Of a stretch of DNA of 11,837 nt, positions 1-3,000 are shown piece after piece. Made by a program: the position numbers. Each line of letters starts with the position of its first letter. Positions within the stretch are counted from its first letter, which is position 1. The stretch comes from a virus (taxonomy: Duplodnaviria > Heunggongvirae > Uroviricota > Caudoviricetes), in IMG/VR virus record IMGVR_UViG_647533159_000005; one strand, written 5' to 3'.

Positions 1-3000
1 ATGGCACGAAAAACCACCCCACTAACTATTACGGAGATCAAAAACGCACGACCAGGGGAAAAGGAATATACCCTGCAGGATGGCGGAGGATTATTTCTTC
101 TGGTGAAGCCCTCCGGATCAAAAATCTGGCGTTTTACGTACTACCGCCCTGCAGATAAAAAACGGACTATTATCAGCCTTGGATCGCTAAATGATGTTTC
201 CCTGTCTGATGCCAGAGAGCGACGGAATGAATACAGGTCACTCATAGCAAAGGGAACTGACCCACAGGACTACGAACGCCGGAAACGTGAAGCAGAGAGC
301 AGGAAAAAGGGCAACACGTTCGAAAAAGTTGCCTCGGACTGGTACGAGATGAAAAAAGGCCAGAATCTGGCTTACAACACGATTAAGGATATCTGGCGAT
401 CCCTGGAAAAATACGTATTCCCGTACATCGGAAACACGCCAATAGATACCCTCACCGCTCGCCGCTTTGTTGAGATACTCACACCCATTAAAGCACGCGG
501 CAACCTGGAAACTCTGAAACGCGTTTTACAACGCATCAATGAAGTGATGGATTTTGCTGCCAACAGTGGGCTGATTGACATCAACACCGCCGCGAACGTC
601 CGCAAGGCATTCCCCTCACCCACCAAAAAGCACATGCCAACCATCCGACCGGAACAGCTACCGCAGCTAATGCACGATTTATCGGTCGCCAGCATAGAAC
701 GGCAAACCAGATTGCTGATTGAGTGGCAACTGCTGACCGTAGCACGCCCAGCCGAAGCAGCCGCCGCACGCTGGGAAGAAATAGATCTCGATGCCGAAAC
801 ATGGACGATTCCAGCCGGACGCATGAAGATGCGCCGTGACCATGTGATCCCTCTTTGCGGTCAGGCGATGGCTGTACTGGAAACAATGAAGCCAATCAGC
901 GCACACAGGGAACATGTTTTTCCCAGCCTTAAAAATCCAATGCTGCCAATGAGCAGCCAGACCGCTAACGCTGCATTGCGCCGGATGGGATACGCTGGTG
1001 TGCTGGTGTCTCACGGATTACGCGCCATATTCAGTACAGCAGCGAACGAGGAAGGATTCGAGCCGGACGTAATCGAGGCCGCACTCGCACACGTGGACAC
1101 GAACGAGGTAAGGCGGGCATATAACCGAAGTAACTACCTGGAAAAGCGCGTGGTGCTTATGCGCTGGTGGGGGGAATTTGTAGAGGCCGCAGCTACCGGA
1201 GTGACCATAGCCAGTGGTAAAAGGGGTATCCGTGCCGTGTAACTGTACAAAAAACCAGTAAAAGCGATGCAAACCATGCTAAACCATCGTATAATCGCCA
1301 CAACCCACCCAATACAGAGAGGAGTCACCCAAATCATGAAATTCAAGGAGCTATCCAGGTGTTTTTCAATGAAAAGGTATCCCCTGCTTGCGGCGAAGGG
1401 CTGCAACTGGCGTTAATGGCAAATCGTGAATTCTGGTCAACATACGATCCGGAAGACAAATCAACAGCCCCCACAAAACACGAGGTAGTCAGTTTTTTGC
1501 GCTCGCGTGGTGCATCGAAAAATCTGGCTGAAAGCATCGACAAGGTGCTGAGGCCCACCAGCCTTAAATGCGGTGGGCGACCTAAGAAGTGGAAACGGTA
1601 ATCACAATAGCGGCCCTTTGCGGTCGCTATTTTTTTTGCAGAAAGAAAAGCGTAATCAATGAGATAAAAAACAGTGGGTACCGTTTTATAAACGGTGGGT
1701 ACTGTTTTTCCCGCCCTGCCCTGTTTTACCGTATTTATCACCGGAATACGCCGGATTAACGAGGTAAAACATAGTGGAAACAATCAGAAAAATACTTACC
1801 CGTCAGGAAGTAAAAAATATTCTGCGCATCAAGGCAGACAGTTCGCTACAGGACATGATCAACGCCGGAAAATTCCCGAAAGGCTTCAAAATCGGTCTGC
1901 GTCGTGTTGGCTGGTATGAAGATGAAGTGCTGGCCTGGCTGAAAGAGCGCGAGGAAGAAGCGCGCGGAACGGCTGCGTAATGGTGTGAGGCGTAACGCGA
2001 TGAACATAACAAAAAGCGCCCCGTTGCCGGAGCACCCTTGCGAACAATTAACCTGCTGCGAAAAAAATGGATCAGTGCAGGGGAATTATATCAACCGTGT
2101 GGCGAAGCGCCACAATTGCCGGATAACAGGCAAAACAAAGGCCACCCGCTACGGTGGCCCCTCGACACAAGCTACACGTTATCCCCAACGCATGAGCATA
2201 GCCAACAATGCCACATTTGCGGCTGGTGGGCAATGTGATCAGTGTGCTGGCTTGCTGGTGGGCTATTCCTGCTCTTTAGTATCGCCATGCTGCGATGTTT
2301 TCCAGGCATGCGATCCCATTTTTGTGCGCCTGTACTCTTTAAGGAACTTTTCAAGGACAAACGCACATGGCGCGAATCTTTCCTGTTCATGTTCTCTTAC
2401 CGCGTTTTTGCGTTGTTTTTTCCTGGATGAGGATAATTTCTTTAATGATTTGTCAGTCATCGTAGATACCTGTAACCCTGTGCGCCACAGTTCACCGCAC
2501 CACGGCGCTGGTGATGGTTACTCCTGCTCTTTGGCCTTGCGCCGCTGGCGGCGTTTGATCTCGCCTTCTAATGCTGCTGTTACAAACTGCCCTGTACTTT
2601 CGCCTTCTTCTTTGACCTTATCCATTGCATCAACGATATGGAGTGGGACACGTGCATCTATTCTTTTCGATTTTGCATTTACTGATTTCGTTGCCATCTC
2701 TGATTTCCGATTGGTTTGGTGTCCGACAATGATAGCGATAAAAAAGATTAATGCAATGCTTGACGTGTCCCACACCATTAAAATAATATGTGTCCGACAC
2801 TTGATTTTTATCAGTAATGAAACGACGAAACCCCGCACTGTTGGAGCAGTAACGGGGCTTCTAACCAAACCGTTAACTGGAGTAACGATTATGGCTGTAA
2901 GACAGCATACCCCACGACTTGCGCACACACAAACGGCCTTTGTGTGGCGTTTTCTGGCACTGAGTGCCGGAGAATCTCAAATCGTCCACGTAACCGCCTG

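Follow-up and report, generated by a model that had tools for sequence, protein, structure and literature searches.

A 59-residue YlcI/YnfO-family protein and three co-varying GTG-N5-CAC boxes as a putative repressor switch in Gram-negative phage satellites

In EcCICFT073, a Gram-negative phage-inducible chromosomal island (PICI), the activator AlpA is both required and sufficient for induction and helper phages turn the alpA gene on; for the Gram-negative PICIs as a group, the global repressor has been called unclear and the helper-encoded inducer unknown (PMC6092414). A later survey described the genes of such islands as largely unidirectional (PMC10111431). We analysed a stretch of 11,837 nucleotides from the viral record IMGVR_UViG_647533159_000005 (hereafter the window), which its gene order, the same as in EcCICFT073, identifies as a Gram-negative PICI-type phage satellite, and in which a minus-strand gene (2518-2697) for a 59-amino-acid protein of the YlcI/YnfO family lies back to back with the replication operon. 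We consider it likely that this predicted ribbon-helix-helix (RHH) protein is an autoregulated repressor of the operon that runs from an icd-like gene to the primase gene, and that its specificity forms a swappable cassette.

The AlpA-controlled PICIs such as EcCICFT073 show the same order as the window, namely integrase gene (int), alpA, icd-like gene, DUF4222 gene, primase, single-stranded DNA-binding protein (SSB), PerC and Nu1-type small terminase subunit (TerS), and the published description of EcCICFT073 makes no mention of the small minus-strand genes (PMC6092414). A repressor gene in the corresponding place is found in the Gram-positive PICIs (the Staphylococcus aureus pathogenicity islands, SaPIs), where Stl or Rpr likewise lies between the integrase side and the divergent replication operon, the presumed common role being to silence the island up to the arrival of a helper phage (PMC6092414). 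Stl and Rpr differ from the 59-residue protein in fold, and the island in the window also carries the activator AlpA; since an RHH protein of this size leaves no room for a separate sensor domain, the regulator would be a functional analogue of Stl at most.

The immI region of phage P22, with its RHH repressors Mnt and Arc and the divergent promoters Pmnt and Pant, offers another comparison. The window protein has no significant sequence relation to either (hhalign probability 10%), and one operator of 21 bp or 17 bp in P22 stands against three separate 11-bp boxes here, with constant flanks and a variable 5-bp core. The P22 region also controls the antirepressor alone, in a phage, whereas the window switch would control the icd-to-primase operon of a satellite. 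In the immI region of P1 (c4 RNA, icd, ant) and the immunity region of P4 (CI RNA, seqA), an icd-type first gene is found, as in the window, behind a structured, conserved leader; control in the window is apparently exercised through a protein repressor. The RHH repressor/operator switch is thus known in kind and it is the place and the protein family that are new, no description of an RHH-box switch of this sort being found in a search of a limited collection of papers.

The original prediction had located repeated GTGTCC(G/C)ACA sites around a sigma-70 promoter pointing into the small-gene and replication operon, beside a divergent gene for a small DNA-binding protein. The sites are where they were claimed to be (GTGTCCGACA at 2719-2728 and 2790-2799, and GTGTCCCACA at 2765-2774), the 59-codon minus-strand open reading frame (ORF) stands next to them, and a sigma-70-like plus-strand promoter was found, with TTGACG followed after 16 nt by AATAAT or after 18 nt by TAATAT and agreement with the consensus at 10 of 12 positions. 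The window holds six matches to the site with at most one mismatch (1.26 expected) and four copies of the exact core TGTCC(C/G)ACA (0.15 expected), and neither count was attained in any of 200 shuffles.

The true repeat unit is an 11-bp box, GTG-N5-CAC, and each copy is placed on a promoter element. Putative operator O1 (2719-2729; GTGTCCGACAA on the plus strand, TTG-TCGGA-CAC in gene orientation) starts 32 nt before the ATG of the regulator gene, against the putative -10 of the regulator's own promoter (minus strand, TATCAT at 2729-2734; TATACT in most relatives), for which the sequence suggests TTGCAT at 2751-2756 as the -35, with a 16-nt spacer; TTGCxx is retained at this point within the same box class (loci L002 and L014). 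Putative operator O2 (2765-2775; GTGTCCCACAC) overlaps the last base of the -35 of the icd-primase promoter (plus strand, TTGACG at 2760-2765, from a consensus scan) and fills the start of its spacer. Putative operator O3 (2790-2800; GTGTCCGACAC) lies immediately 3' of the -10 (TAATAT at 2784-2789, 18-nt spacer, or alternatively AATAAT at 2782-2787, 16-nt spacer), over the expected transcription start. The proposal that the sites bracket the operon promoter therefore stands for O2 and O3; O1 instead abuts the -10 of the regulator's promoter.

Eighty loci encoding a homologue of the regulator were collected and the 140 nt preceding each start codon were read, 74 of the loci being analysable and 64 of the regions distinct. 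Three GTG-N5-CAC boxes of the locus's own type were present in 66 of the 74 analysable loci, all from Enterobacterales, with O1 starting at -32, O2 at -77 ± 1 and O3, in either orientation, at -98 to -113, each in 65 of these 66. In gene orientation the layout reads CAAG-GTG-N5-CAC-(other-strand -10)-...-GTG-N5-CAC-GTCAA-...-T-rich-...-GTATAC-TG-N5-CAC-C...SD...ATG (SD, Shine-Dalgarno sequence). In 52 of the 64 distinct regions O2 is directly flanked by TTGA(C/A/G)G on the opposite strand (TTGAxx in 61), and in about 50 the gene strand has (G)TATAC(T) right next to O1, with GTATAC itself at -37 to -32 in 44 and near variants in most others. Because these hexamers abut the boxes, O2 would occupy the -35 and spacer and O3 the start of the operon promoter, and O1 the -10 and +1 of the regulator's promoter. 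Gene order is kept in the 80 loci, with int downstream and icd, DUF4222 and primase genes upstream and divergent, which places the gene, in the window as elsewhere, between the integrase side and the replication operon, where a master repressor had been expected. EcCICFT073 carries the same module, a 59-residue YlcI/YnfO gene (C_RS30120) with a three-box switch (GTGTGGCCCAC at both O2 and O3, CTGTCCCCCAC at O1), and an operon promoter of the form TTGACG-18-TATAGT.

The GTG/CAC flanks and the promoter hexamers are constant across loci, and the central 5 bp varies along with residues 11-17 of the protein, the predicted DNA-reading strand (KRIDARV in the window). When the cores of O1 and O2 were read blind at -32 and -77, they were identical in 38 of the 74 loci and one base apart in a further 17, and loci with different strands as a rule differ from one another at three to five core positions. 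Among the three-box loci, pairs with the same seven-residue strand always had the same box class (49/49), as against 20 of 546 pairs with different strands. About 20 box classes were distinguished. Strands KRIDARV and KRFDVRV go with the core TC(G/C)GA, KKLEARV with TCAGC, Q(A/S)LK(A/S)RV with TGGCC, QMTTVRI with A(A/C)ATA, QQLNARF with AATCG, QQIVSRV with (A/C)ATGC, QS(I/V)T(V/A)R(V/I) with TCTTA, QKMSARV with GCACC, LQVSVRL with AACAC, QK(L/I/V)Q(A/T)RA with GACTC, GAGTA or GATTC, and QT(L/I)AARV with TTGAA. Proteins that share residues 12 and 14 in an otherwise different context have similar cores, as do KQVNVRV ((A/C)ATAG) and QQLNARF (AATCG), and likewise QMTTVRI (AAATA) and QLFTVRV (AAACA). 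Boxes at fixed positions on promoter elements, with a core that co-varies with the predicted DNA-reading strand, bear out the reading of the region as an operator switch. Where two satellites reside in one genome, they belong to different classes in 28 of 29 pairs, 2.1 same-class pairs being expected by chance; this is consistent with heteroimmunity and is not significant.

Since the loci were found through the protein, adjacency of gene and boxes is in itself no evidence, and the mosaicism of the islands serves as the control. Pairs of loci whose AlpA proteins are at least 90% identical (global alignments of high-scoring segment pairs of at least 45 amino acids) share a box class in 19 of 47 cases, and Xenorhabdus loci with identical AlpA-like proteins have four different classes; no GTG-N5-CAC box was found upstream of alpA in the window. 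The islands of EcCICFT073 and E. coli Nissle 1917 are about 96% identical over the leader, icd and the rest of the operon as far as the primase gene, with several proteins sharing an accession, whereas the former has the strand QALKARV with TGGCC boxes and the latter QSLTARI with xCTTA boxes, the similarity breaking off in the leader. The regulator genes of the window and EcCICFT073 have their 3' ends in common, but their N-terminal halves are unlike, and so are the boxes. On the other side of the gene, downstream ORFs lie at distances from -3 to 199 nt, vary in length and are absent from many loci, and the Icd-like first gene was undetected in many. Taken together, the comparisons with AlpA, with the Icd-to-primase genes, within the gene and with the downstream genes point to the N-terminal half of the regulator as the specificity determinant, exchanged together with its operators.

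The regulator matches the NCBIfam family NF041551 (YlcI_YnfO_N) over residues 9-50 (60.2 bits against a cut-off of 30, E 1.5e-16), and the identical protein of the E. coli MB06102 island (locus L001) bears the RefSeq name 'YlcI/YnfO family protein'. It also matches PHROG 949, labelled 'unknown function'; there was no Pfam match at E<=0.1, and a PDB sequence search returned no solved structure. The AlphaFold2 model, built on a 35-sequence alignment (predicted local distance difference test, pLDDT, 88.8), has an extended segment at residues 11-18 and helices at 19-28 and 35-58. This strand-helix-helix order is that of the RHH repressors and agrees with the RHH-like character that had been proposed. 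In the hhalign alignment, K9-S-K-R-I-D-A-R16-V-P of the regulator stands opposite K6-M-P-Q-F-N-L-R13-W-P of Arc, at low probability but in the register that would be expected. In Arc, alternate residues of the strand face the DNA, and by analogy the DNA-facing residues of the regulator would be those at positions 12 and 14 together with the invariant R16.

Variation at the three codon positions of the regulator gene is 0.20, 0.14 and 0.43, and the excess at the third argues that the gene is real. The original prediction was to fall if the minus-strand ORF proved not to be conserved in related islands; it is conserved from Escherichia to Xenorhabdus, with homologues in Salmonella, Enterobacter, Citrobacter, Yersinia, Pectobacterium, Serratia, Proteus and other genera. 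The family is compact (91 representatives at 50% identity) and its C-terminal helix is conserved (GEIKRRQRRK). A tblastn search of 50,697 phage records with the regulator gave no match, so that the helper phages would be without close homologues at that sensitivity. Some family members are 100-137 amino acids long, with a C-terminal extension past the RHH domain, and the long member of Nissle 1917 (3577-3882 of locus L083) retains the three-box switch.

The proteins from which the family takes its name, YlcI of the DLP12 prophage and YnfO of the Qin prophage of E. coli K-12, have the N-terminal pattern M-[AS]-T-K ... R-x-P ... G-x-[ST]-G-x-F in common with the regulator, and are only about 21% identical to it. 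In K-12, ylcI (6252-6446 of locus L082) lies on the opposite strand, beside cos and the Nu1 homologue nohD, in the lambdoid late region of the cryptic prophage DLP12, and no triple GTG-N5-CAC boxes were found upstream of it there. The prophage copies are a separate, distant branch of the family, and their role is probably a different one.

On this basis, we propose that one RHH dimer would bind each of the three 11-bp operators. That the protein would act as a homodimer, with paired strands in the major groove of repeated sites, draws indirect support from the repetition of the boxes and from the way their core co-varies with strand residues 11-17. The invariant residues N7, K9, S10 and R16 would read the constant GTG/CAC flanks and the variable strand residues 11-15 the central 5 bp. 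Binding at O1, which lies against the -10 and over the regulator's own start site, would give autorepression. In the integrated island, with O2 occupied in the -35 and spacer of the back-to-back promoter and O3 occupied over its transcription start, RNA polymerase would be denied access to that promoter, which drives the replication operon of icd, the small ORFs, DUF4222 and the primase gene. The N-terminal half of the gene and the operators would make up a cassette that recombines between islands much as an immunity region does.

Repression might be lifted in either of two ways, both speculative. A helper-phage protein could act as an anti-repressor on the conserved C-terminal helix, or helper-induced alpA transcripts could run antisense through the regulator gene and into the operon. 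Two strong intrinsic terminators between alpA and the small genes (2162-2137 and 2039-2012) are oriented for the minus strand only, with no T-run for the plus strand; they would end the regulator transcript and leave plus-strand alpA transcription unstopped, and the same terminator hairpin is present in EcCICFT073 (10016-10043 of locus L085). The AlpA-activation model has to be reconciled with a repressor, and read-through of this kind, boosted by AlpA, is a speculative way in which the published AlpA dependence could be accommodated.

More tentatively, we suggest as a serious possibility that the immunity or master repressors so far missing from the picture of the Gram-negative PICIs and related enterobacterial satellites, EcCICFT073 included, are RHH proteins of the YlcI type, with 20 or more orthogonal, exchangeable specificities, each made of five strand residues and a 5-bp core, and with helper phages or AlpA-driven antisense read-through inducing the island by overcoming this repressor.

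Several points weigh against the interpretation of the regulator as a repressor. The induction of EcCICFT073 has been explained by the activator AlpA, with no repressor needed (PMC6092414). The window protein does not reach membership of the curated RHH families of Pfam (RHH_1, Arc and others), a set of 35 family members gave only weak matches (PSK_trans_fac in five, CB_ParB_C in four and RHH_1 in one, the last at E 0.0093), and Foldseek gave no match for the regulator. The loci were gathered by way of the protein itself, and its presence beside boxes is partly by construction. The consensus scan missed the regulator's own promoter, the -35 of which is weak, and the spacings of 45 bp between O1 and O2 and of 22-35 bp between O2 and O3 give no obvious sign of a helical phasing that would favour cooperative binding. 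The binding, the repression and the transcription start sites are predictions, and the sign of the regulation is deduced from the positions of the operators only.

An alternative that we think unlikely is that induction is decided not by the regulator but by AlpA, which would switch the island on (through read-through or directly), the RHH protein serving for local fine-tuning, or for dual regulation as Mnt and Arc do in P22 immI, and setting only the basal level. The requirement for and sufficiency of AlpA in EcCICFT073, where helper phages turn alpA on (PMC6092414), is what this alternative would lead one to expect. It also draws on the two minus-strand-only terminators, no plus-strand terminator standing between alpA and icd, and on the distinct repeats that alpA has upstream of itself at 1669-1708. 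On the other hand, two of the three operators lie on the core of a strong operon promoter, a placement that would be pointless if that promoter were idle, and diversification into about 20 specificity classes is typical of immunity determinants. The fine-tuner overlaps with the repressor explanation, and the two are compatible.

It is very improbable that the boxes are bound instead by AlpA, by the Icd-like protein, by the primase or another initiator (as iterons), or by a helper or host factor, with the small ORF merely linked to them. AlpA is a known DNA-binding regulator of such islands (PMC6092414) and repeats near replication genes can be iterons, but the box class is independent of AlpA in the comparisons above, boxes are missing upstream of alpA, and EcCICFT073 and Nissle 1917 differ in their boxes with near-identical Icd-to-primase genes. 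In many loci, moreover, no Icd-like first gene could be detected, about 20 cores are more than a single host factor can explain, and the boxes overlap the promoter hexamers at positions fixed to the base pair. Scarcely tenable, finally, is a role for the RHH protein as a type II antitoxin or as a ParG/omega-like centromere binder, with boxes serving its own autoregulation or partition, since there is no conserved toxin gene directly downstream (the downstream ORF being unconserved in position, length and sequence outside E. coli, and absent from many loci), two of the three boxes are on the divergent promoter rather than the regulator's own, and the island is integrated and has no partition ATPase in the vicinity.

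Two further box-like sites were found in the window. One lies within the regulator ORF (2641-2651, minus strand; GTGTCCCACTC) and forms a 16-nt inverted repeat with O2. As a looping operator it was rejected: only the TCGGA/TCCGA class has a box-like site inside the ORF, the other classes being without a box of their own type in the gene, and the site overlaps the codons of the conserved Arg-Val-Pro, of which it is probably a coincidental by-product. The other is distal (11436-11446, minus strand; CTGTCCCACAA), 27 nt upstream of the ATG of a gene for 96 amino acids (11130-11420). It is an exact copy of the core, is preceded by GTACT in a similar '-10 then box' layout and is kept in the E. coli MB06102 island, a single lineage, and it may be a fourth operator through which the regulator also controls this distal gene.

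The icd messenger RNA has a conserved, structured leader (2831-2886, plus strand, within 2801-2893) made up of hairpin 1 (2831-2857), an invariant CUUCUAACCA (2858-2867) and hairpin 2 (2872-2886), which holds the Shine-Dalgarno sequence GGAG in its loop. RNAalifold over 28 loci supported 15 pairs, nine of them with compensatory changes, and the UGG in the start-codon region is the pairing partner of the CCA at 2865-2867. Scanned against Rfam at E<=1, the window as a whole returned a spurious SCARNA13 match alone and no C4, IsrK or P4 CI family, and the leader is therefore not a recognised immunity RNA. By analogy with P1 c4-icd and P4 CI-seqA, it may serve in translational control or as an antisense target.

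Islands of the Gram-negative PICI type are recognised by int followed by alpA, a primase/replication module and packaging accessory genes, without lysis or tail genes, at a specific site. The window contains the integrase gene (1-1242), an ORF of 80 amino acids between it and alpA (1774-1980; PF05930), and, in addition, a DUF927 primase (broken), SSB, PerC and Nu1-type TerS. The plus-strand operon begins with the 65-residue Icd-like protein (2891-3088; NCBIfam NF033153, E 2.2e-17) and continues with small ORFs, DUF4222, the broken primase, SSB, ProQ/FinO and PerC, the Nu1-type small terminase coming later. The island of E. coli MB06102 is 93% similar to the window and is integrated at tRNA-Pro beside yejM, and the region was matched in 1216 of 5426 complete E. 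coli genomes, about a fifth.

The DUF927 primase of the window is split and shortened, into 4054-4713 and 4866-5363 (plus strand; 219 and 165 amino acids), where that of the MB06102 island is intact (2124 bp, 5348-7471); given the split, this copy of the island may be replication-defective. The Nu1-type small terminase (PF07471, E 6e-68) and an F4/K88-type fimbrial subunit (PF02432) are encoded at 8056-8658 and 9188-9988 (plus strand), the fimbrial subunit gene being cargo, with the remainder of the fimbrial operon absent.

Upstream of alpA, two 19-nt direct repeats, AAAC(A/G)GTGGGTAC(C/T)GTTTT, lie 21 nt apart on the plus strand (1669-1708) and are unrelated to the boxes. They are likely to be sites of AlpA autoregulation or of the response to a helper, and the Nissle 1917 island has a similar pair of repeats. 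Downstream of the regulator gene, and probably co-transcribed with it, is a gene for a small, basic protein of 65 amino acids (2263-2460, minus strand; phrog_21027), the EcCICFT073 counterpart of which has 57 (10243-10416 of L085); both contain the motif ERFAPCAF.LE.FLKEYR, and no homologue was detected outside E. coli among the related loci from other genera. A 367-codon open frame on the plus strand (1985-3088) extends from the end of alpA, antisense to both small genes, across the promoter region and joins icd in the same frame. As its third codon positions fall together with those of the regulator gene, we regard it as a shadow ORF; the equivalent stretch in Nissle 1917 (3212-3691 of L083) is annotated in RefSeq as a partial 'Icd-like' pseudogene.

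The present analysis gives the YlcI/YnfO proteins of satellites a first functional assignment, as putative repressors, and accounts for the small minus-strand genes that interrupt an otherwise unidirectional island map. For the Gram-negative PICIs, where the literature offers the activator AlpA only (PMC6092414), it provides a concrete candidate for the missing repressor. The roughly 20 natural protein/operator pairs on one scaffold are a resource with which the specificity of RHH proteins can be studied or engineered and, if the YlcI-type proteins are indeed the master repressors of these islands, they would amount to a compact natural protein-DNA recognition code for orthogonal synthetic repressors.

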